Shown piece by piece: positions 3,891 to 61,000 of a stretch of 64,000 nt of DNA. Origin of the DNA: an uncultured Rhodothermales bacterium (GTDB lineage Bacteria > Bacteroidota > Rhodothermia > Rhodothermales > VXPQ01). Under the pieces are notes generated by a model. It was given only the letters and a program-made list of their open reading frames with translations. It had not been told where the DNA came from and made no database searches. The stretch spans positions 349 through 64,348 of the forward strand of contig CAZART010000010.1 in the NCBI GenBank assembly GCA_964487555.1. Reading direction: 5' to 3'. The translations under genes were made by a program, and so were the position numbers. Positions within the stretch are counted from its first letter, which is position 1; every line of letters starts with the position of its first letter.

Positions 3891-6076
3891 GAATTATCCT
3901 CCCTGTCGGACCCTCCGGCCGCCGCGCACTTCCCGCGTGTCCTTCGATCCGCCCGACGTTCCCCACGTGTCCCGCAGTCCGCCACACGTTTCCGGCGTGT
4001 CCCGCAATCCGCCACACGTATCCCGCGTGTCCCGCAATCCGACGCACGTATCCGGCGTGTCCCGCAATCCGACGCACGTATCCGGCGTGTCCCGCAATCC
4101 GACGCACCTTTCCCGCGCGTCCCGCTATTCGCCGCGCCTTTCTCTCCGCTCCCGAGATACGCCGTTCAATTCTCACCGGTCTACCGGCGCGCATCCTCCT
4201 GATCCTCTTGCTCGCCGGGCTGGGCGCGCAGGGCTGCAGTCCGGCCGAATCACGCGAGGATGCGGTTCCCGCGGAAGAACGGCCCGCCTTCACGCTCGTT
4301 GCGGAAACCGGGGCGGACACGTCGTTCACCTACACGGTGGACGTGCGCGACTCCCTGGTGGTCTTCGGCCGCGGCCGCGACGTTGTGGTCGTGAACGTTG
4401 CCGTTCCCTCGCACCCGCGCGTGCTCGCGTTCGTGACGTTGACGGACGCCGTACGCGACGTCGTTCTTCGCGGCTCGTATGCTTACGCGGCCGCCGATGC
4501 CGGCGGTCTCCACATCATCGACCTGTCGGATCCTGCCGCTCCGGCATTGAACGGCCGGATGCTCTTCGGCGATCGCGCATACGGCGTTGACGCGGCCGAC
4601 GGCCGCGCCTATGTGGCCGCTCGCTCAGAGGGGCTTCGGGTTCTTGATGTGTCGGATCCTCAGATGCCCCTCGAAATCGGCCATATCCTCACGCCCGATG
4701 AAGCGGTAGACGTCGTCGTCCGTGGCGACGTCGCGTACGTTGCCGCCTGGTACGCGAGCATGCGCGTGATCGACGTCGGCGATCCCGCGGCGCCGGAAGA
4801 AGTAAGCTTCGCGGCCTATGACAGCTACGACAACGGCGCTGCATGGTCCGTTCACGTGGATGGCGACGTGGGTGTGCAGGCGGTGCCCGACATGGGCCTC
4901 CGCACCGTGGACGTCTCCGATCCTCGTGACGTGAAACTCTATAAGGTCTATCGCGGCCTCTTCGCCCCGATCGGCGCGTTTGTCAGCGGGCGCACGGCAT
5001 ACGTGGCCGACCAGGATGCGGGATTCCGTGTGCTGGACCTCGCCGATCCCAGGATGCCCGTCGAGATCGGCGCGCTCGATCTGCCCGGCTCGGCCATGTC
5101 CTCTGCTCTGTCCGGCACGATCGCTTACGTCGCCTCGCGAGAGGGCGGCCTCCGGATCGTCGACGTATCGCGTCCCTACGCCCCCCGGGAGATCGCGCAC
5201 GTAGATGCCTCAGACGACGTCGCCGACGTCACTTTGATCGGGGACACGCTCGTTGCAGCCGGGCGCCAAAACGGCGTGTTGCTGCACCGCGAGACGGCGA
5301 ATCTCGAAGGGGCCGGATTCATAGCCGGGCCCTCAACCCGCGTAGCGTCATACGGAAACGTACTTCTCGTCGGCGGTCCGAACCGAATCGGCATCTACGA
5401 CCGCTCCGACGTCGCTACGCCCTTGAGCGTGGCATCGGTGCAGGGAACCGTCCACGGCCTGGCCGCCAATGACGATGTCTTGATTGCCGCGACCGAGCGC
5501 TTCGGGATTCGAATTTGGGCGACGAATACCCTCCGCGAAATGGGGGCCTTCGAACCCGATCGGGCGCTCCTCACCACCTCCAATCGAACGCAAATGCTGC
5601 GAACCCCCGTCGCGGCGTGGGACGTGCTGCTCGACGGCCGCCGCGTCATCGCCGCCTTCGATGACGGCATTCGTCTGCTCGACGTCTCGACGCCGTCACG
5701 CCCGACCGTCATCGGTATGCTGGCCACGCCACAGCGCGTTTACCGACTTGCGCTGCGCGGATCGGAGCTTTTCGCCGCCTGCGACGACGGCCTTCGCGTC
5801 ATAGACGTCTCCGATCCGGCCCAGCCGACCGAGCTCTCCTTCCTGAAAACGCCATCCTTCGCCACGGCCATCGCCTTCGACAACGATCATCTTTACGTGG
5901 GTGATCTCAGCGGCATCGTCACCGTCGTCACGACCACCCTCCCGCTCACGCCCCTCGCTGAAGTGAAGGTGGCAGACCGAATCCTGGGTCTTACTACATG
6001 GAACGGAGGCCTCGCTGTCGCCGCCGGTCCGCAAGGAGTTCGCGTCGTGGCCGACCTCCTTCCAAGCGACGACTAG
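3887..6076 (+). CDS. LVIVD-repeat beta-propeller protein with lipoprotein-like hydrophobic segment; the start is uncertain
   Basis: There are more than 10 repeats of the type YAYAAADAGGLHIIDLSDPAAP / AYVAARSEGLRVLDVSDPQMP (LVIVD family). The ATG at 3887 overlaps the upstream TGA (ATGA). The segment RILLILLLAGLGAQGC at about 4190-4240 has no canonical start codon between it and the repeats. Confidence 0.6.
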   Translation: MRIILPVGPSGRRALPACPSIRPTFPTCPAVRHTFPACPAIRHTYPACPAIRRTYPACPAIRRTYPACPAIRRTFPARPAIRRAFLSAPEIRRSILTGLPARILLILLLAGLGAQGCSPAESREDAVPAEERPAFTLVAETGADTSFTYTVDVRDSLVVFGRGRDVVVVNVAVPSHPRVLAFVTLTDAVRDVVLRGSYAYAAADAGGLHIIDLSDPAAPALNGRMLFGDRAYGVDAADGRAYVAARSEGLRVLDVSDPQMPLEIGHILTPDEAVDVVVRGDVAYVAAWYASMRVIDVGDPAAPEEVSFAAYDSYDNGAAWSVHVDGDVGVQAVPDMGLRTVDVSDPRDVKLYKVYRGLFAPIGAFVSGRTAYVADQDAGFRVLDLADPRMPVEIGALDLPGSAMSSALSGTIAYVASREGGLRIVDVSRPYAPREIAHVDASDDVADVTLIGDTLVAAGRQNGVLLHRETANLEGAGFIAGPSTRVASYGNVLLVGGPNRIGIYDRSDVATPLSVASVQGTVHGLAANDDVLIAATERFGIRIWATNTLREMGAFEPDRALLTTSNRTQMLRTPVAAWDVLLDGRRVIAAFDDGIRLLDVSTPSRPTVIGMLATPQRVYRLALRGSELFAACDDGLRVIDVSDPAQPTELSFLKTPSFATAIAFDNDHLYVGDLSGIVTVVTTTLPLTPLAEVKVADRILGLTTWNGGLAVAAGPQGVRVVADLLPSDD
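3901..4170 (+). repeat. Nine phased 30-bp tandem units (consensus TCCGGCGTGTCCCGCAATCCGACGCACGTA)
   Basis: Units start at 3901, 3931, ... 4141. The central three (4021-4110) are nearly identical and the outer ones are degenerate. The array is in frame with the ATG at 3887 and translates as (P)ACPAIRRTY decapeptides. Confidence 0.9.
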
Positions 6077-36263: not shown

Positions 36264-36917
36264 CTAGAGCCCCAGCTTGTTCAGTATGTATTCGATCCGG
36301 CTTCTAAATCCGAGACCGTATCCATAGCGCTCGGCGGTGCCGCGTCCGAAATGGGTGACGTAGTCGTCGATGGGGAAGTCTTCGAGCCTGTACCCCTCCT
36401 CGGCGGCCGCGCGGAAATTTTCGAGTGCGGGCAGGCCGTGATGAATAAAGGAGGGGAGTTTGAGGTAGATCTCCCGCTTGACCAGCATATAGGCGCTTAC
36501 CAGGACAGGTATACCCGTCGGCGCAGCAAACCCGCGCCTATTGACGTAGGCAATCTTACCCACTCCATAGACGTTATCCTCGGCGCCGAGCATCGCCATT
36601 CGCTCGAGAAATCCCCCGCGTACGGTTTCGGTGTCGCTGTCAAAAACGTAGACGAAACGACGATCAAGCTCGCGGAGAGCCAGATCCATAGCCGGTCCGT
36701 GGTAGCGATTCTCCGACAGAAGTTTCGTTCGAATGGATGGCCCGAGCTCGCGCTGGAGCGTGCGGATGACGTCGGGGGAGCCGTCCGAAGACCCGTTGTC
36801 GACAATCAGAAGAGGGACGTTCGGATATTCGCGATTGAAGCTCCGGACGGCCGTTTCCAGCAAGTCCGGCGTCTGGAAGTTGACGACGGCAGCGGAAACG
36901 CGTTGCTCGATTGACAT
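36264..36917 (-). CDS. Family 2 glycosyltransferase
   Basis: VSAAVVNFQTPDLLETAVRSF and PLLIVDNGSSDGS, then the DxD-like FDSD. Confidence 0.8.
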   Translation of the reverse strand: MSIEQRVSAAVVNFQTPDLLETAVRSFNREYPNVPLLIVDNGSSDGSPDVIRTLQRELGPSIRTKLLSENRYHGPAMDLALRELDRRFVYVFDSDTETVRGGFLERMAMLGAEDNVYGVGKIAYVNRRGFAAPTGIPVLVSAYMLVKREIYLKLPSFIHHGLPALENFRAAAEEGYRLEDFPIDDYVTHFGRGTAERYGYGLGFRSRIEYILNKLGL

Positions 36918-36975: not shown

Positions 36976-36995
36976 AAAAAACGCCGACCGCGGCG
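36976..36995 (-). terminator. Intrinsic terminator closing the non-coding unit
   Basis: Minus-strand CGCCG-CGGU-CGGCG followed immediately by U6 (plus-strand A6 at 36976-36981). It lies 59 nt upstream of the GT2 start. Confidence 0.45.
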
Positions 36996-37224
36996 AGGCA
37001 GTCAGCGCTTTTTAATTCCCTCAACGCGACGGCCTCCCTTGAGTCAGGTCCTGCCGAAGCAGCATCCTTTCCCAGGTGGGAGGCAAACTCTCATGCCGGT
37101 ATGGAGGCCGGCTGGTAGCTACGCGCACGGTGCCCGGTTTCCCGGTCACGGTACGTCTAAACCGCATGGGCAGACGGTTCAGGAGCTACGGACTTTCGAT
37201 GTCCCGTGCATGCGTTTTCACACA

Positions 37225-37620
37225 CGCTCTCCACGGCAAGCCGATTCGTACAGCAACCTGCTTCACCGTGCGTCGGCTCTCCGCATCGGCGTTTCCGCCG
37301 AAGCCTCATCGAGCTCTTGCACTCCACAGGTGGCCGCCGTTCGCTTATCTGCTTCACCGAGCGGCGCTCTCCACAGCAGCGATTGCATGCTTGCTTCACC
37401 GAGCGGCGGTGCTCCGCGTTGCATCTTTCGATGCGCTGCTTCGACACATGCCGCTCTCCACAAGCTGCGCCGGATCGCTCGCCTCAACAAGCATCGCGCT
37501 CGGCAGTCTCTCTTTCGAGTCGCTGCGTCAACACGCTCTGCTCTCGGCGGTGCGATCCCATCGCACGCTGCATCAACAAACGTCGCTCTCCACAGACAGC
37601 TTATTCCGCTGCCGCTTCAA
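37225..37620 (-). repeat. About nine degenerate 43-50-nt modules; minus-sense consensus (C)UGUGGAGAGCG-N4-8-GUUGAAGCAGCG
   Basis: The plus-strand CGCTCTCCAC core or close variants start at 37225, 37275, 37319, 37365, 37409, 37452, about 37503, 37534 and 37584. Confidence 0.8.
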
Positions 37621-37956
37621 CGAGACGTGCGGAGCCGATGCATGCGCAGTATCTTGACGAAGAAGCAGGCCCGAAGGCCGGGTACCTCGTCTTTTTCTGG
37701 CACACAGCCGAAGCTGGAGCCAGTGATAGCTGTGCGTGTCGATGGACTAGCTGCCGATGCTGCGGCCGAAGCCGCTCATCTGCACAGTTGTCACATCGCC
37801 GGCATCCGGCGCGGATATCGTAGCAGGCGAACCTGTACGACCTTCCGGTCGAATACCACATCGTCCCGCATGGTCTTTCGACCAGTGCACGGGCGTCCTC
37901 ATGCAGCCCAGAGTTTTCAGTCGCGTCAAGGAACAGTGCCGTCAGGCACTGAGCCC

Positions 37957-37985
37957 ATTATACCTTTAGACGGCACCCACGTCAA
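37957..37985 (-). promoter_or_regulatory. Sigma-70-type consensus promoter TTGACG-17 nt-TATAAT
   Basis: In the minus sense the -35 TTGACG is at 37985-37980 and the -10 TATAAT at 37962-37957, with an exact 17-nt spacer. The predicted start is near 37950. Confidence 0.5.
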
Positions 37986-38002
37986 GCAGTGACCCCTTCA
38001 AA

Positions 38003-38347
38003 TAGTCCACAATTCGCTAACAGGATATCCACATTGCGTTCGAAGAACCGTTCATAACCAGTGAGGGGACGTACACGGATCTGACGCTAACCCGGACAGG
38101 ATTGACGACTTGCCCTGTGTGGAAATAGACGAGAACGGAGAAGAAGAGAGGGGGCTTAGGACCAAAAAGCCCGGCTTGCCCAAAAGCCGAGCTTCTTGTT
38201 GCCCACCGATGACGCGACTGATGCGATCCCCGCAGGGGTGCTCTAGGCGACATGAGGTAACAGAAAGATAGGAGGTGTATCCCCTTCACGCAAGGGCAAT
38301 AACGGTATTTTATCCACAATGTGACTTTCCCCCACGTTTTATCCCTA
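38003..38347. promoter_or_regulatory. Cluster of DnaA-box-like 9-mers
   Basis: TTATCCACA is perfect at 38310-38318. ATATCCACA (38025-38033) has 1 mismatch. TAGTCCACA (38003-38011), TGTGGAAAT (38118-38126, opposite orientation) and TTATCCCTA (38339-38347) each have 2 mismatches. Confidence 0.3.
38164..38191 (-). terminator. Intrinsic terminator downstream of the rhomboid gene
   Basis: Minus-strand CUCGGCUU-UUGGGC-AAGCCGGG (an 8-bp stem with one G-U pair), then C and U5. Confidence 0.55.
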
Positions 38348-38379: not shown

Positions 38380-39000
38380 TCAAAATCCCATCTGGCCGAG
38401 GAAGATCGCCAGCGCTCGGGGCTCCAGCAGAACCGTCAACACGAGCCCGCCCAGCGCGCCGCCAATATGCGCCTCATGCGCAATGCCTCCGGTCATACCT
38501 CCCTCCTGCCCCTTTTTCATGGCGTAGATCGAAAGCACCACATAGGCAACCGCAAATACGATCGCCGGAATCGGGATAGGCAGGAAAAAGATGTAGAGCT
38601 TGTGAAAGGGGTAGAAAAGACAGTACCCAAATACCACCCCGCTAACCGCCCCCGAAGCTCCAACGGCCGCATAACTGGCGGTCTTGCGGTGGAGAAGCAG
38701 AGACAGGCCGTGCGCGGCTAGCTCCGCTCCGAAATAGAGCAATAAAAACTTAGCCGGGCCAAGCAGACGCTCTAACTCAGGACCGAAAAAGAAGAGCGTC
38801 AGCATGTTGAATGCAAGGTGCGCCACGCCCGCGTGTACGAAACCGGCCGTGATCAGCCGCTGATACTCTCCATGCTCGAGAATTCGACGGGGCTTAAACG
38901 CGAGCCTGTCAACCAGTGAATGATCGAAGTAAAGGGCATAGGCGCTCACCAGCACGTTGACGAGCAGCAGGAGAATCGTGACAGGTGTTTCGGCAAACAT
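38380..39000 (-). CDS. Rhomboid family intramembrane serine protease
   Basis: HAGVAHLAFNMLTLFFFG, the catalytic Ser in GASGAVSGVVFG and His in AHIGGALGGL. The start is at M21 of the ORF. Confidence 0.85.
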   Translation of the reverse strand: MFAETPVTILLLLVNVLVSAYALYFDHSLVDRLAFKPRRILEHGEYQRLITAGFVHAGVAHLAFNMLTLFFFGPELERLLGPAKFLLLYFGAELAAHGLSLLLHRKTASYAAVGASGAVSGVVFGYCLFYPFHKLYIFFLPIPIPAIVFAVAYVVLSIYAMKKGQEGGMTGGIAHEAHIGGALGGLVLTVLLEPRALAIFLGQMGF

Positions 39001-39078
39001 TCTGCTGACGGAGATAGGGATGGACGTTCTAGCAGTCACACGAGCGGATGCAAGCCACACCCGCCCCCGCGAATCCGC

Positions 39079-54934: not shown

Positions 54935-56128
54935 ATGAGAATAACCGTCATCGGCGCCGGAGCCGTGGGATCGGCCGTTGCGCACGAACTGCACGAGCGG
55001 CCTGAGATCACGCAGATTCAGATCTGCGACGCTCGTGCGAGATCGCTGCAGCAGCTGCACCATGACGTCAAAAGTTCAAAGCTTCGATCCTTCCAGGTCG
55101 ATGTACGCGACGTAAATGTGCTCGAACCCATCCTTCGCGGCAGCGACTGCGTCATCGGCTGCGCTGCGCCGGAGGTCAATCCGATCCTCGCAGAGACGTG
55201 CCTTGAGCTTGGGATGCATTTCTGCGATCTCGGAGGCAATGAAGAAATTGTTCGGAAAGAACTCGAGCTCGACGAGCGAGCGCGACAGAAGTCGGTATGG
55301 ATCGTACCGAACTGCGGCCTTGCCCCGGGCCTGGTAAATATCCTCTGTCTACGAGGCGTAGATGAGTTCGACGAGGTGGAAGAAGCGCACCTTCGCGTGG
55401 GGGATGTGCCGCTTCAGCCCGATCCGCCATTCAATTTCCGGATTTCCTGGTCGGCGGAGAAAATCCTCGACGACTATACCCATCCGGTCCAGGTCATCGA
55501 AGACGGCAACGTAAAGGAGTTGGAGCCCTTATCACTCGAAGAGCCTATCTGCTTTCCGCCCCCGTTCGAACGGATGGAGTCATTCTGCACGGCCGGTGGA
55601 CTATCCACGCTCACGGCGCAGCTGGAAGGCAAGGTCAAACAGCTGGATCACAAGACGATCCGCTGGCCGGGGCACGCCAATCAGATGCGCTTCCTATTGG
55701 GTCTGGGCTTTGGCGAGAAGCGCAGTATCGACGTGCGAACGCACCTCACGTATCGCGACGTTTTGATTCGCCGTATGCGGCAGCGGCTTGGCGGCTCCCA
55801 CGAAGACGCCGTCCTCCTGCGCGTACTGCTGAAGGGCAAAATAGAGAACGAGAAAAAGACGCTCGTCTACGAGATGATCGAAAGCTATGATGCCATCCGA
55901 GATATGACGGCTATCCAGCGGTGCACGAGCGTACCGACGGCCACCGTAGCCCAGCTCATCGCTGCGCGCGAGGTACCTGGCGGCGGCGCTTCGCCCCCCG
56001 AGAACGTGGTCCCCAAGGAGCGATATTTCAATATCCTAGCATCGCGCGGCCTCCACGTGTCGACCATGTGGTTCGACGGTTACGTCGACGTAAGAAATCC
56101 GGAGGAAGTCCAGGCTCATCGCTCGTAG
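54935..56128 (+). CDS. Saccharopine dehydrogenase family NAD(P)-binding protein
   Basis: MRITVIGAGAVGSAVAHEL, then a saccharopine-dehydrogenase-like C-terminal domain (PNCGLAPGL, RWPGH). Confidence 0.7.
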   Translation: MRITVIGAGAVGSAVAHELHERPEITQIQICDARARSLQQLHHDVKSSKLRSFQVDVRDVNVLEPILRGSDCVIGCAAPEVNPILAETCLELGMHFCDLGGNEEIVRKELELDERARQKSVWIVPNCGLAPGLVNILCLRGVDEFDEVEEAHLRVGDVPLQPDPPFNFRISWSAEKILDDYTHPVQVIEDGNVKELEPLSLEEPICFPPPFERMESFCTAGGLSTLTAQLEGKVKQLDHKTIRWPGHANQMRFLLGLGFGEKRSIDVRTHLTYRDVLIRRMRQRLGGSHEDAVLLRVLLKGKIENEKKTLVYEMIESYDAIRDMTAIQRCTSVPTATVAQLIAAREVPGGGASPPENVVPKERYFNILASRGLHVSTMWFDGYVDVRNPEEVQAHRS

Positions 56129-56263
56129 GCGTGTATCATCCCTCGTAGGCGTGCATCTTTCCCCGTAGGCGCGCATCATCCCCCGTAGGCGCGCATCATC
56201 CCCCGTAGGCGTGCATCATCCCCCGCAGGCGTGCATCATCCCCCGTAGGCGCGAATCGTTGCG
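56124..56263. repeat. Seven tandem 20-bp units (CGTAGGCGYGCATCATCCCC) spanning the stops of two convergent genes
   Basis: Units start at 56124, 56144, ... 56244. The TAG of the plus-strand gene (56126-56128) lies in unit 1. The TGA (56236-56238) and last 5 codons (RAYGG) of the minus-strand SDR gene lie in units 6-7. Confidence 0.9.
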
Positions 56264-58015: not shown

Positions 58016-61000
58016 ATGCGGACGCTGGCAGCGCTTGCCGGTGGTGCGCTTGCCGCAGCCGTCGTGCTCGTTAGCGTAACAGCGAGCGGCCGCCCGACGG
58101 AACGCCATCCGGGCCTGTCGACGTGGTATTCTCTGTCGGATACCGACTCGGTGGCCGTCGACGCGATGCTCGCCGATCCCGCGGGCGTCGATCCCGCGTT
58201 CGTGGACTCCGAGGTCGTGGACTCCGCAGTCGCGGACTCCGTGGCCGGCGAATCCATAGTCCCGGACCCCGTGGCCGGCGAATCCGTAGTCGGGGACTCC
58301 GTGGCCGGCGATTCGATCCTGAGGAATGCGATCGGGGTCGACTCTGTCCTGACCGACTCGATGCTCGTGCTTGGCGACACGCTCGAATCGGACACGACCG
58401 ACACACTGCAGACGCCACGCGCCGATTTTTACCTCCCTTCTCGCCGGCGAGATGCGTGGACCGCCTCTCCGGTGCAGCGAAAGCAGCGGCCGTTTTATCC
58501 GCGGCTGGGCAGCTATTGGAGGCATGAAGTAGAGCTCGATTCCACCGCGCGCGAATTTACCGTCCGCGAATATGTGGGGGAAACGCCGGTCCGGTATCCG
58601 CTTACCCTCGACTATGAGGGCTACCGGCGGGTACGGCTAGACGACGATCTGGAGCAGAGTTGGGTCGAGCTCATCGAAACGCGCCGGCGCCAGCGGCAGA
58701 GCCGTTCACGCGGCGGCCTCGGCTTCAATATCGTCGTGCCCGGCGGCCAGCAGAGCGCCTTCACGACCATCTTCGGAAAGCCGGAAGTCGATCTTCGTGT
58801 GAACGGACAAGCCGACATCAAGGCCGGCTTCGACTACCGTAAGAGCGATCAGCAGATCAGTTTCACGGGTAAGTCCGCCCAGCTGGATCCCGACTTCAAG
58901 CAGGATCTTCGTCTCGGCATCACGGGATCGATCGGCGATAAGCTGCAGGTGGACGTCAATTGGGACACGAACAACCAGTTCGATTACGAGAACCAGCTTC
59001 GATTGCAGTACCGCGGATATGACGACGAAATCATCCAGAGCATCGAGGCCGGAAACGTCAACCTCAGCACGCCCTCGCGGCTGATCCGCGGCGGTCAGAG
59101 CCTTTTCGGCATCAAGAGCGAGCTCCAGATGGGCGGGCTGCACCTGACGACCGTTGCGAGCCAGCAGGAAGGCCAGTCGAACACTCTCGATATCTCGGGT
59201 GGATCAGAGACAACCCCGATCGAACTAAAGCCGACGGACTACGACGACAGTCGACATTTTTTCCTCGCCTTCTATTTCCGCAACCGCTGGGAGGACGCGC
59301 TGTCTGAGCCGCCGAACCGCCGCATTACCAACGGTTTCGAACGCATCACGGACCTGGAGGTATGGAAGAGGCAGCCCACAAGCGCTGAAGATGAGAATGT
59401 GCGCCAGATCGTCGCCATGGTGGACCTCGGCGAGGCGCCCGAGATCATCGAATTGGCCGATCAGTACACCGACGACGACCTGCGCGCACTTCCAGACGAA
59501 GACAATGACCGCTACGATCCGACGATCGTCGAGCAACAGCTAAGGAGAGGCAGTGTTAACCCGGAGAGCTATCTCTCTTCGGCAGGCCTTGGAGGCGACG
59601 ACTTCGAGCGCGGAAAGTTCAAGAAACTTTCCCGCGGTCGCGATTACGACCTCGACGACGTGCTGGGCTACATCTCGCTCAACGAACGCATCCAGGAGGG
59701 CGAAGCGCTCGCCGTCTCGTTCCGGTACGTCGCCAACGGTCAACTTCACGAGGTCGGCGACCTTTCCACCGAAACCGGCGGATCAACGGGTGGTCAGAAC
59801 GAGGATCGCCTCGTCATGAAGCTAATCAAGCCCGTTCGGCTTCGCCAGCCTGCCGAAAACTTCAACCCGGCGGCCTGGTACCTCGAGCTGCGTAATATCT
59901 ATCGCCTCCCAAGCCGCGGGCTCAATCCGAACGATTTTGAGCTGCAGATCGAACACCAACCTCCCGGCAAGCCGGGTTCGAAGACCATTTCGGAAGTCGG
60001 CGGTCGGCAGACGCTGCTTCAGATCCTCGGCCTGGACCGCCTCAACGTAGACGGCGCACTACAGCCTGACGACAGATTCGATTATCTAACCAATTTTACG
60101 ATCGACCCCGGGGACGGTACGCTTATTTTCCCCTACCTGCAGCCGTTCGGCGACCGCATTGCAGAGGTGATTGACGAACAGGAAATCGCAGAAGGGGAAA
60201 AGGAGCGCCGCAAGAATACCTACGTCTTCCGTAGCCTTTATACGGAGAAAAAAGACAATGCCAGGCTCGAGAAAAAGTACGAAGACATCTACCGAATCCG
60301 AGGCGAGTTCAAAGGGGCCGTCCAGGAATTCTATGACCTGAAAGCTTTCGCCGGACTTATTGAAGGGTCCGTCCGCGTGACCTCGGGTGGAAGCCGCCTC
60401 ACGGAAGGGCAGGACTTTGTCGTAGACTATCAGGGCGGCACGGTGACGATTACGAATCCGGCCTACCTCTCGGCCGGCCGCGACATCGAGATTTCGTACG
60501 AGCAGAATTCTTTCTTTAACTTGCAGAAGAAGACGCTGTTGGGCGCCCGTGCAGATTATATCTTCGGGCCGAGCCTCGCAATCGGCGGCACCATCTTCAA
60601 TCTCAATCAGAAGTCCCCAATCGACAAGTTCAGAATCGGCGAGGAGCCGATTTCGAATACCATCTGGGGCGTCGACGGCGCCCTGGACGTGGAGCCTCAC
60701 TGGCTCACACGCGCTATCGACGCGCTCCCGTTCATTCAGACCAAGGCTCCAAGCTCTATACAGATCACGGGCGAATTCGCCCAGCTTCGCCCCGGCGTGA
60801 GCGAAACCGTCGCGTTTGAACGATCGCGGCGTGACCTCGACAGGCGGTACAACCGTGATTTCAAATCGGACGAGCTTCGCGGTATCTCCTATCTGGATGA
60901 TTTCGAAGGCTTTGAGAATACGTTTTCACTGAAACAGCCCGGAGCGTGGCGACTCGCCGCCGCGCCCGATTCCATCGGACGTGTTCCACCTGCCCTCAAC

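Follow-up and report, generated by a model that had tools for sequence, protein, structure and literature searches.

Nine kink-turn motifs in nested helices at the variable centre of a large non-coding RNA of Rhodothermales

Results

The nine modules of about 45 nt repeated in the centre of a large minus-strand RNA of Rhodothermales are the two halves of nine kink-turns (k-turns), gathered in an expansion domain of about 420 nt. The k-turn strands pair between modules rather than inside one, which sets the nine k-turns in nested helices with a structural period of about 87 nt, corresponding to two modules, instead of 45. We consider it likely that the array serves as an architectural domain that is made of k-turns and folds by itself, at the variable centre of a single-copy RNA that is apparently abundant and was previously undescribed. 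The coordinates of all features are given in Table 1, where n and b designate the non-bulged and the bulged strand of a k-turn.

Repeat Array and Host RNA

The analysis covered a window of 64,000 nucleotides (the whole stretch of DNA). Exact copies of CGCTCTCCAC were located at positions 37225, 37365, 37452 and 37584, and close variants at 37275, 37319, 37409, ~37497–37503 and ~37534–37541. The word CTCTCCAC was present five times in the 64-kb window, with four of the five copies inside the array. A repeat search revealed families spaced by 43–45, 87 and 130–134 nt; nothing was reported by Tandem Repeats Finder at 37200–37650 because the copies are too degenerate and diverged. The sense strand of the array is the minus strand, on which the promoter and the terminator lie. 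The nine modules listed by the preliminary description are real, with four exact cores and close variants for the others, and its argument that they are not coding holds, since the spacings are not multiples of three and the orthologues differ by indels of 1 and 2 nt.

The host RNA of about 940 nt is made up of a 5' core (~70 nt) that does not vary, a domain rich in hairpins, the k-turn array and, at the 3' side, a second core. It is closed by the helix P1, and UUCCUUGACGCGAC at the 5' side pairs with GUCGCGUUGAGGGAA at the 3' side. Its fold is far more stable than those of shuffled sequences (z = −6.2), which, with the promoter and the terminator, bears out the earlier view of a highly structured non-coding minus-strand RNA with repeated structured modules at its centre. 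The promoter is common to loci L001, L003, L155 and L059; locus L003/L013 is that of the cultivable Roseithermus sacchariphilus MEBiC09517. Homologues were found in 69 Rhodothermales genomes (species), with one copy in each, and in 77 metagenome contigs. Some contigs resemble transcripts, and the RNA appears abundant. The terminator is probably trimmed off the mature RNA, since in 13 JGI contigs the sequence stops at the 3' strand of P1, before the terminator is reached. The total length varied from ~358 to 1235 nt among the members and that of the middle domain from ~0 to ~900 nt, some members (358 nt) being nearly devoid of it. The 5' core was fixed by the search pattern used to collect homologues, so that little covariation is visible in this part. 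The glycosyltransferase (GT2) homologues of Rhodothermus profundi and of a Kryptoniota MAG were not accompanied by this RNA, which lies adjacent elsewhere.

The search of Rfam 15 at the gathering threshold gave no match in the whole window or in ten representative loci (large and small RNA). At E ≤ 10 no family emerged, only weak matches to RAGATH-18 and to an S4 leader, and microRNA/snoRNA noise. The RAGATH-18 (RF03064) match, at 37255–37330 (−) on the unit U78, reached 18.8 bits (E = 2.5) for a gathering threshold of 44.9; the RNA is not a member of this family, and the likeness is that of a shared k-turn hairpin. No tRNA or tmRNA was found by ARAGORN, and no signature sequences of RNase P, SRP, 6S or tmRNA were recognized by eye, so that these identities were rejected. 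Literature searches returned no described Rhodothermales non-coding RNA and no k-turn array. The host RNA is a new, order-wide class of non-coding RNA in the Rhodothermales, apparently abundant and previously undescribed. A cluster resembling DnaA boxes is situated in front of its promoter. An origin of replication, which this cluster brought to mind, was discarded: the GC skew does not switch at 38 kb, and the window, taken in its entirety, showed no enrichment of 9-mers resembling TTATCCACA.

Table 1. Position of the features of the large RNA, the k-turn array and the small RNA in the window.
Feature	Position (strand)	Description	Basis
Promoter of the large RNA, sigma-70-type	37957..37985 (-)	TTGACG, 17-nt spacer, TATAAT	11/12 consensus positions
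Large non-coding RNA	37016..37950 (-)	~935 nt, predicted start to end of closing helix P1	
Intrinsic terminator of the large RNA	36976..36995 (-)	GC stem (36995-36982) then T6	Terminator scan
K-turn array	37218..37633 (-)	Nine k-turns in nested helices	Fold and comparative pairs
K(b0,n9)	37230..37621 (-)	GUUGAA 37621-37616, GGA 37232-37230	RNAalifold consensus
Long-range k-turn pair	37353..37591 (-)	K(n1,b6) + K(b1,n6); encloses U23 and U45	
K(n1,b6)		GGA 37591-37589, GGUGAA 37358-37353	
K(b1,n6)		GUUGAU 37577-37572, GGA 37372-37370	
Unit U23	37475..37554 (-)	GAAA loop cap	R1 match 66.5 bits, E = 1.6e-12
K-turns of U23		K(n2,b3): GA 37545-37544, bulged 37488-37483; K(b2,n3): bulged 37532-37527, GA 37501-37500	
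Unit U45	37387..37467 (-)	GAAA loop cap	R1 match 88.8 bits
K-turns of U45		K(n4,b5): GGA 37459-37457, GGUGAA 37400-37395; irregular K(b4,n5): 37445-37440, 37415-37413	
Unit U78	37254..37333 (-)	GAAA loop cap	R1 match 76.2 bits
K-turns of U78		K(n7,b8): GGA 37325-37323, GGUGAA 37267-37262; K(b7,n8): GAUGAG 37310-37305, GGA 37282-37280	
Small RNA, ~96 nt	38164..38259 (-)	Upstream of the large RNA; terminator	Own -35/-10 (TTGCGT, 17-nt spacer, TATCTT)
Small-RNA blocks complementary to the large RNA		Block 1: 38258-38241; block 2: 38221-38210; block 3 (GUGGGCA): 38206-38200	
5'-core segments of the large RNA complementary to the small RNA	37897..37928 (-)	UGACGCGACUGA 37928-37917; CUCUGGGCUGCAUGAGG 37913-37897	
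Conserved hairpin loop of the large RNA, UGCCCAU	37166..37172 (-)	Complementary to (A/G)UGGGCA of the small RNA	

Kink-Turn Identity of the Repeats

The standard k-turn, as in H. marismortui Kt-7, RAGATH-18 and drum, has in common with the array a canonical (C) helix, a 3-nt bulge, tandem sheared G.A/A.G pairs and a non-canonical (NC) helix. In the array, GU-G-GA followed by GAGCG makes up the non-bulged strand, and CGCUC followed by GGU-GAA-GCAG the bulged one. A 3-nt bulge (GUU, GGU or GAU) lay beside a C helix of 3–11 bp at eight of the nine sites; at the ninth, K(b4,n5), the window has a bulge of only 1–2 nt and L059 has GAU. The tandem pairs 3' of the bulge (G1b.A1n and A2b.G2n) were in register on both strands. 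The GA dinucleotides (G1b-A2b and G2n-A1n) were invariant in 17 of the 18 strands among four orthologues while L1–L3 varied, and the GA of K(b4,n5) was lost in L157. The NC helix continued past the G.A pairs and both helices covaried. The GGA triplets correspond to k-turn positions 3n-2n-1n, of which G2n and A1n form the sheared G.A pairs.

The dominant signature of the array (−1b:−1n C:G, 3b:3n A:G, 4b:4n G:U) matched that of Kt-7 and of the RAGATH-18 and drum k-turns (the latter two in PMC8191799, Table 1), and the drum and RAGATH-18 k-turns fold in Mg2+ (PMC8191799). According to PMC8191799 and PMC4382518, a G:U at 4b:4n improves k-turn folding, and 3n = G together with the C:G and G:U pairs predicts a tightly kinked geometry (included angle of about 50 degrees) with A-minor contacts, induced by Mg2+ or protein. 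The geometry of the array k-turns is a prediction from these sequence rules. A Watson–Crick 3b:3n pair, which folds poorly in ions alone, was present in K(n2,b3), and U.G was found at −1 in three k-turns. The inner k-turns are weaker than the outer ones.

The minimum-free-energy fold contained six internal loops of the k-turn type (GGA/GGUGAA, GA/GUUGA and GAUGAG/GGA) compared to 0.01 ± 0.1 in 100 dinucleotide shuffles. This count replaced a pairwise k-turn scan without folding, which gave 41 combinations compared to 15 ± 5 in shuffled sequences and was uninformative, as an n strand can match any b strand.

Nested Structure of the Array

The k-turn K(b0,n9) is outermost and encloses the pair K(n1,b6) and K(b1,n6), which in turn encloses the units U23 and U45; the unit U78 constitutes a second branch. 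K(b0,n9), with the signature C:G, A:G, G:U, possessed an 11-bp C helix and a 10-bp NC helix, helices 1 and 2 being 97.7% and 92.5% paired. The long-range k-turn loops were seen in the fold at RNA positions 359–363/592–599 and 373–379/579–582, and compensatory changes occurred in the extended NC helices (alignment columns 374–382/628–637 and 403–414/597–607). For U45, the fold showed the loop UUGU[GGA]GAGC / GCUC[GGUGAA]GCAA. Altogether, the 134 nested pairs were 94.6% paired over the four orthologues and 19 of them showed compensatory changes, compared to 7.8 ± 2.1 in shuffled alignments (none of 500 shuffles reached the observed number) and 1–3 in slid controls; the pair counts are inflated, because the alignment of the four orthologues was fitted to this model. 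The strands being repeated, alternative pairings exist, for example the local n1-b1 and n6-b6 mini-hairpins, and they are compatible with the first 4 bp of each helix.

A local stem-loop model, with one hairpin per 45-nt module, fitted module 6 only. The GAGC-GCC-GCUC mini-hairpin and the local CUGCU/AGCAG clamp, which the preliminary description regarded as usual in each module, were found together in a single one (37349–37380). The comparative data favour long-range nested pairing across modules, of GUGGAGAGCG of one module with CGCUCGGUGAAGCAG of another. A comparison with relatives, one of the checks proposed earlier, showed that the closest ones retain the modules in collinear order, with 76–86% identity, and that the number of modules differs between species.

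The Double Kink-Turn Unit and Its Copy Number

The evolutionary unit is a double k-turn hairpin of about 81 nt, of which three are present in the window RNA; they aligned in register with 69% identity. The covariance model R1 recovered 32 units in 15 contigs (652 kb, both strands), all of them inside the large RNA and on its strand. Compensatory changes were observed in 20 of the 21 pairs across the 32 units (152 cells, compared to 49 in shuffled alignments). The GA positions were kept in 31–32 of the 32 units at the outer k-turns and in 23–28 at the inner ones. The distance from kink to kink was 11–12 nt in 28 and 30 of the 32 units. GNRA loops capped 23 of the 32, and the hairpin loops were GAAA, GGAA, GCAA or UUCG. 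From base to tip, the unit comprises an outer k-turn with the bulge on the 3' strand, two C helices placed back to back and spanning about one helical turn, an inner k-turn with the bulge on the 5' strand, an NC helix and a GNRA cap.

The copy number was one to three units per RNA. Other clades, such as those of L100 and L127, possessed different hairpin repeats, unrelated to k-turns, at the array site. Because of these replacements, and of the members nearly lacking the middle domain, the array is not essential to the core function of the large RNA. The domain probably grew by tandem duplication and by insertion of units into one another, from a single unit in some species to the three units and three enclosing k-turns seen here.

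An Adjacent Small RNA

The small RNA encoded upstream of the large one was conserved in about 100 loci. Its inverted repeats with the 5' core were complementary over 12 of 12 nt for I7 and at 82% over 17 nt for I3, with duplex energies of −25 and −29 kcal/mol. Block 3 and its partner loop co-occurred in 66 of 75 loci, and a compensatory change was found in L060, where CUGGGCAG/CUGCCCAG replace AUGGGCA/UGCCCAU. A permutation of cognate and non-cognate duplexes for block 1, affected by extraction errors, gave p ~ 0.06. A duplex fold of the whole small and large RNAs was meaningless owing to giant loops. The idea that the host RNA acts together with this small RNA, to which it is complementary at three sites, is speculative.

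Discussion

The array brings together a single motif, nested pairing, fixed spacing and conservation with a copy number that varies among species. The kinks probably form without protein, because the dominant signature was shown experimentally to fold in Mg2+ alone, and they would compact the domain into a defined three-dimensional shape. This shape would either hold the GNRA loops in place for contacts, tertiary or intermolecular, or serve as a multivalent platform. The array is possibly a docking platform of this sort, and a version in which it docks or titrates many copies of a k-turn binder (of the L7Ae/YbxF/YlxQ family or another) is, in our view, rather unlikely. In its favour, k-turns are the classic sites of the L7Ae family and almost all of them fold on binding these proteins (PMC8191799); in archaeal RNase P RNA, a double K-turn is the site of L7Ae binding (PMC5499556), the k-turn of the OLE RNA binds OapC (PMC9723947), and nine near-identical, regularly spaced sites in species-variable number fit the tuning of valency. 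Mechanistically this resembles the earlier proposal, with k-turns instead of GGA loops. However, the consensus is of the self-folding kind (3n = G, −1 = C:G, 4 = G:U), unlike the protein-dependent k-turns of box C/D RNAs or of L7Ae leaders, and other clades swap the k-turn units for unrelated hairpins. Searches with tblastn for L7Ae, YbxF, YlxQ, Hfq and E. coli CsrA gave nothing significant in the 64-kb window and in about 150 related loci, a weak negative at about 8 kb per genome. The last of these proteins is the one expected if the RNA were a sponge of the CsrB/RsmZ type, sequestering a CsrA-type protein by GGA motifs in short stem-loops, the architecture to which the preliminary description had drawn what it labelled as no more than an analogy. 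The array is rich in GGA triplets and the RNA is apparently abundant, features that recall such sponges, but this part of the earlier reading did not survive, and its remaining probability is very small: the structure largely refutes it, since the triplets are buried at 3n-2n-1n in the G.A pairs inside helices and the loops are GNRA or UUCG, not ANGGA. Nor was there any Rfam match to CsrB/CsrC/RsmX/Y/Z even at E ≤ 10, and a CsrA site has no role for the covarying helices or for NNNGAAGC, the conserved partner word.

The array could also be a tolerated expansion segment, arisen by slippage or duplication of hairpins at a permissive site, paired only against misfolding and devoid of a function of its own. 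The range of the middle domain, the unrelated repeats at the same site in L100 and L127 and the one to three units per RNA agree with this explanation, which is nevertheless improbable, as the GA dinucleotides, L1 = G and the kink spacing are conserved far beyond what the maintenance of helices requires, the array is collinear at 76–86% identity with compensatory changes, and independent arrays at one site suggest a selection for bulk or valency. The possibility that the repeats encode a repetitive protein is already refuted. It derives from the plus-strand open reading frames at 37039–37992, 37076–37657 and 37206–37823, from overlapping minus-strand ones and from the 251-aa and 299-aa frames, without Pfam domains, that gene callers place on homologous regions; yet the spacings and short indels disrupt the frame, the changes in helices are compensatory and the structured RNA is bracketed by a promoter and a terminator. 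The preferred reading remains that of a self-folding architectural domain.

Comparison with known systems underlines what is particular to this domain. Known k-turns occur one per RNA or domain, whereas the array contains nine in about 420 nt, as nested and repeated double k-turn hairpins. The helix P12 of euryarchaeal RNase P RNA likewise carries two k-turns in one arm of a large structured RNA; there, KT3 uses the NC helix of KT2 as its C helix, the two k-turns being arranged head to tail, and L7Ae binds to both (PMC5499556). In the array the C helices are back to back, the kinks are 11–12 nt apart, the bulges are on opposite strands and the host is a bacterium. Box C/D sRNAs also possess two k-turn-type motifs on opposite strands of a hairpin-like RNA, but the array is devoid of the RUGAUGA/CUGA boxes (its consensus being NNNGAAGC / GUGGAG), has A:G and not U:U at 3b:3n, presents a covarying helix and not a free guide between the kinks, and has its C helices, not its NC helices, facing each other. 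CsrB, RsmZ and RsmY are, similarly, abundant non-coding RNAs with tandem structured modules in species-variable number, but in them CsrA recognizes GGA placed in hairpin loops or linkers, whereas here GGA lies inside k-turns, the loops are GNRA and a large conserved core exists outside the array.

The host RNA may also be compared to OLE, GOLLD, ROOL and raiA, which are likewise long, highly structured and lineage-restricted RNAs of unknown biochemical function. OLE holds a functional k-turn (PMC9723947) and several large ornate non-coding RNAs form RNA-only assemblies (PMC12286853). The present RNA has no sequence or Rfam relationship with them and belongs to another phylum; its middle domain is hypervariable and made of tandem repeats, and its neighbour is the gene of a dedicated small RNA complementary to it. 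The expansion segments of rRNA and the variable arms of RNase P RNA and tmRNA provide other cases of a conserved core tolerating lineage-specific helical insertions at a fixed site, but what is inserted here is one defined tertiary motif, in tandem copies and with a constrained geometry.

In a further model, which we regard as rather unlikely, the two RNAs form a new kind of machine. The small RNA would dock by three conserved contacts, two blocks invading the closing helices P1–P3 and the third contact being that of the AUGGGCA/UGCCCAU loop. The effect of docking would be to toggle the large RNA between closed and open forms. The array, folding in Mg2+, would shape a compact RNA-only body, or a higher-order assembly comparable to those of ROOL and GOLLD, with a size or valency tunable by lineage. 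Expression may be tied to DnaA via the cluster resembling DnaA boxes that precedes the promoter.

Until now, k-turns were known either as isolated architectural elements or as sites for proteins, and the array represents a new use of this known motif. A repeated double k-turn hairpin domain, with fixed spacing, GNRA caps and nested copies, was not described in Rfam 15 or in the searchable literature. Nine k-turn variants in one molecule provide a test case for the rules relating sequence to folding, the array is an example of the growth of an RNA domain by duplication, and the double k-turn unit is a ready-made natural building block for RNA nanostructures. If the two-RNA model is true, this would be the first natural RNA with an architecture built from a tandem array of kink-turns. 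With the host RNA and its dedicated complementary small RNA, experiments on function become feasible in species that can be cultivated, among them Roseithermus sacchariphilus.

The Repeat Array and Its Kink-Turns

The CGCTCTCCAC repeat array is real. The plus-strand word was found exactly at positions 37225, 37365, 37452 and 37584, and degenerate copies occupied the remaining five modules of the preliminary description. A repeat search recovered copies at spacings of 43–45, 87 and 130–134 nt; Tandem Repeats Finder did not detect the array at the modules. Read in the RNA sense, GUGGAGAGCG and CGCUCGGUGAAGCAG are the two words that are conserved. They oppose each other in the minimum free energy fold as internal loops CUGU[GGA]GAGC / GCUC[GGUGAA]GCAG, in which a Watson–Crick canonical (C) helix leads into a 3-nt bulge; G.A and A.G pairs follow, and after them the non-canonical (NC) helix. 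The loops predicted in this way are standard kink-turns (k-turns), and the fold contained six of them, compared to 0.01 +/- 0.1 in 100 shuffles. The dominant signature (-1b:-1n C:G, 3b:3n A:G, 4b:4n G:U) is also that of the RAGATH-18 and drum k-turns (PMC8191799, Table 1). This common signature explains a below-threshold Rfam match to RAGATH-18 at 37255-37330.

Pairing of the nine non-bulged (n) with the nine bulged (b) strands takes place between modules, not within them. The outermost k-turn, K(b0,n9), is formed by strands b0 and n9. Within it, K(n1,b6) and K(b1,n6) surround two double k-turn hairpin units, U23 and U45, and a third unit, U78, makes a second branch. This nested pairing across modules accounts for a structural period of approximately 87 nt, matching families D1 and D4 of the repeat search. 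The local GAGC-GCC-GCUC mini-hairpin, previously thought to be usual in the modules, was present in only one.

Features of the locus and of related loci and contigs (L numbers) carrying the large RNA
Feature	Position or loci	Strand	Remarks
GT2 glycosyltransferase gene	36264-36917	minus	one flank of 1.46-kb gap
Rhomboid protease gene	38380-39060	minus	other flank of 1.46-kb gap
Large-RNA promoter	37985-37957	minus	near-consensus; TTGACG, 17-nt spacer, TATAAT
Large-RNA intrinsic terminator	36995-36982 plus T6	minus	predicted
Small RNA, ~96 nt	38259-38164	minus	immediately upstream of large RNA; conserved
CCGTTATTG pair	L001:3905-3975, L003, L006, L007, L010, L014, L034, L052		upstream of small-RNA promoter
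U23	K(n2,b3)+K(b2,n3)		hairpin enclosed by K(n1,b6), K(b1,n6)
U45	K(n4,b5)+K(b4,n5)		hairpin enclosed by K(n1,b6), K(b1,n6)
U78	K(n7,b8)+K(b7,n8)		second branch
JGI contigs, 1.07-1.24 kb	L081, L089, L100, L109, L113, L116, L121
JGI contigs, 1.07-1.24 kb	L127, L133, L136, L150, L153, L154

Comparative Support

A collinear array was observed in the closest relatives, L155, L157 and L059 (83%, 86% and 76% identity, respectively). In the alignment with these three loci, the nine-k-turn structure (134 pairs) was 94.6% paired, and 19 pairs showed compensatory changes compared to 7.8 +/- 2.1 in column shuffles (0/500); slid controls gave 1–3 such pairs. The compensated pairs include the long-range helices at columns 403-414/597-607 and 418-430/494-507, which discriminate the nested model from local mini-hairpins. 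The GA dinucleotides were invariant in 17 of the 18 strands and the bulge nucleotides were variable. Coding repeats were excluded by frame-breaking indels and by the compensatory changes.

The three units align mutually in register with 69% identity and are therefore duplicates. R1, a covariance model built from them, matched 32 units (E <= 0.05) in 652 kb comprising the window and the loci, all inside the large RNA and on its strand. Three units per RNA were present in the window, L059, L069, L076, L006, L089 and L146, two in L009, L153 and L117, and one in L001, L082, L007, L062 and L027. Compensatory changes affected 20 of the 21 pairs (152 cells versus 49 in shuffles), counts that are inflated by the fitting of the alignment to R1. 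The GA positions of the outer k-turns were kept in 31–32 of the 32 units, L1 was a G in 30/32, the kink-to-kink spacing was 11–12 nt in 28/32 and 30/32, and 23/32 were capped by GNRA loops; the inner k-turns were less regular than the outer ones. The array is made of nested helices broken by k-turn motifs and arose by duplication of a double-k-turn hairpin; near relatives conserve it, and its copy number differs among species.

At the same site, other clades possess non-k-turn repeats. The middle domain of four family members of 1.1–1.24 kb (L100, a whole contig, L127, L121 and L036) contains unrelated tandem repeats that seem to have expanded independently at a single site: in L100, units of approximately 50 nt that combine UUCG hairpins with purine-rich 8x8 internal loops (CAACGGAA/GGAAGAAA), and in L127, back-to-back UUCG hairpins of approximately 30 nt. 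Elsewhere in the window, tandem repeats at 709-1011, 3919-4142, 56116-56251 and 58200-58311 (periods of 8–53, 30, 20 and 30 nt, respectively) are probably within coding regions.

The Large RNA

Two minus-strand genes flank the 1.46-kb gap that holds the array region, and the promoter-to-terminator span of the large RNA is approximately 975 nt. The transcript is rich in GNRA and UUCG hairpins and its fold has a z of -6.2 versus dinucleotide shuffles. The 5' UUCCUUGACGCGAC pairs with the 3' GUCGCGUUGAGGGAA. AAACUCU/AGAGUUU forms a further long-range helix, in place of which other clades have GAGUCUC/GAGACUC. No Rfam 15 family matched the window or ten related loci, and ARAGORN returned nothing. 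Public annotations place ORFs of 251 and 299 aa opposite it (L003:3987-4742 (-) and L155:108-1007 (-)); both are devoid of any Pfam domain and are almost certainly spurious gene calls.

Protein homologues of the GT2 neighbour assign the organism to Rhodothermales, and the gene order purQ-rhomboid-gap-GT2 recurs. A search for exact matches to the conserved 5' motif detected one copy of the large RNA per genome in 69 species, every one of them either from Rhodothermales or an unclassified 'Bacteroidetes' MAG, and also detected it in 77 metagenome contigs. Measured between the 5' motif and the closing helix, its length varies from ~340 to ~1230 nt, with conserved ends and a hypervariable middle. 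Nineteen of the 77 contigs start <=25 nt from the 5' motif and 13 stop at the final pair of the closing helix. The 13 JGI contigs listed in the table begin inside the 5' hairpin and stop at that pair, without the terminator. We infer that contigs with these ends are assembled transcripts of an abundant, 3'-trimmed RNA, which would imply a high abundance in environmental RNA.

The Upstream Small RNA

The small RNA has promoter-like -35/-10 elements and a terminator of its own, and is conserved in approximately 100 loci (e.g., L001:4140-4240, L011, L059). Three of its blocks are complementary to the 5' core and the UGCCCAU loop of the large RNA. Block 1, ACCUCAUG.CGCCU.GAG, would pair with CUCU.GGCUGCAUGAGG; block 2, UCAGUCGCGUCA, would pair with UGACGCGACUGA at 12/12 positions in the window; for block 3, (A/G)UGGGCA, the complementary partner is UGCCCAU, a conserved hairpin loop (37172-37166). 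Of 75 distinct loci, 66 have both block 3 and its partner loop; both are apparently absent from the L019/L028/L046/L149 clade, and they change jointly in L060, to CUGGGCAG and CUGCCCAG, a compensatory change. Blocks 1 and 2 overlap the pairing segments of the closing helices of the large RNA itself, so that the small RNA would compete with the 3' end for one and the same 5' segment. The two RNAs may together make up a switch or an RNA in two pieces, or one may act as a sponge for the other. The 5' end of the small RNA (ACCUC..., 38258-38254 (-)) resembles the 16S anti-Shine-Dalgarno sequence, and the conserved large-RNA loop GCAUGAGG (37904-37897 (-)) has an SD-like GAGG adjoining AUG; a link to translation initiation is possible.

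In many genomes, two CCGTTATTG copies approximately 50 nt apart lie 5' of the small-RNA -35 element and resemble a transcription-factor site. A cluster of DnaA-box-like 9-mers (TTATCCACA / TGTGGATA / TGTGAAT family; window ~37995-38045 and 38310-38318) is conserved between the small-RNA terminator and the large-RNA -35 element, and was also seen upstream of the large-RNA promoter in L097, L099, L066, L052 and L034. GC skew gave no sign of a replication origin there; with no origin indicated, the large-RNA promoter may be regulated by DnaA, or another factor may bind.

Discussion

The motif itself is a textbook k-turn. Its arrangement is not a textbook one, being unlike the head-to-tail double K-turn found in archaeal RNase P and unlike both box C/D RNAs and CsrB-type sponges. 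Rfam 15 contains neither the large nor the small RNA, and no description of either turned up in literature searches. We consider both the large-RNA class and its array of k-turns to be new.

The analogy with CsrB/RsmZ drawn in the preliminary description does not hold: the loops are tetraloops, and G.A pairs bury the GGA triplets. The array could possibly serve as a multivalent platform on which a protein that binds k-turns would dock, but no such protein was found near the locus, and the sequences of protein-dependent k-turns differ (PMC8191799). A G at 3n, C:G at -1b:-1n and G:U at 4b:4n permit folding in Mg2+ without protein (PMC4382518; PMC8191799), and the fixed one-turn spacing of the kinks points to a geometric constraint. 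This signature and spacing favour a self-folding architectural domain: the array would fold by itself, compacting the large RNA and placing its GNRA loops in position.
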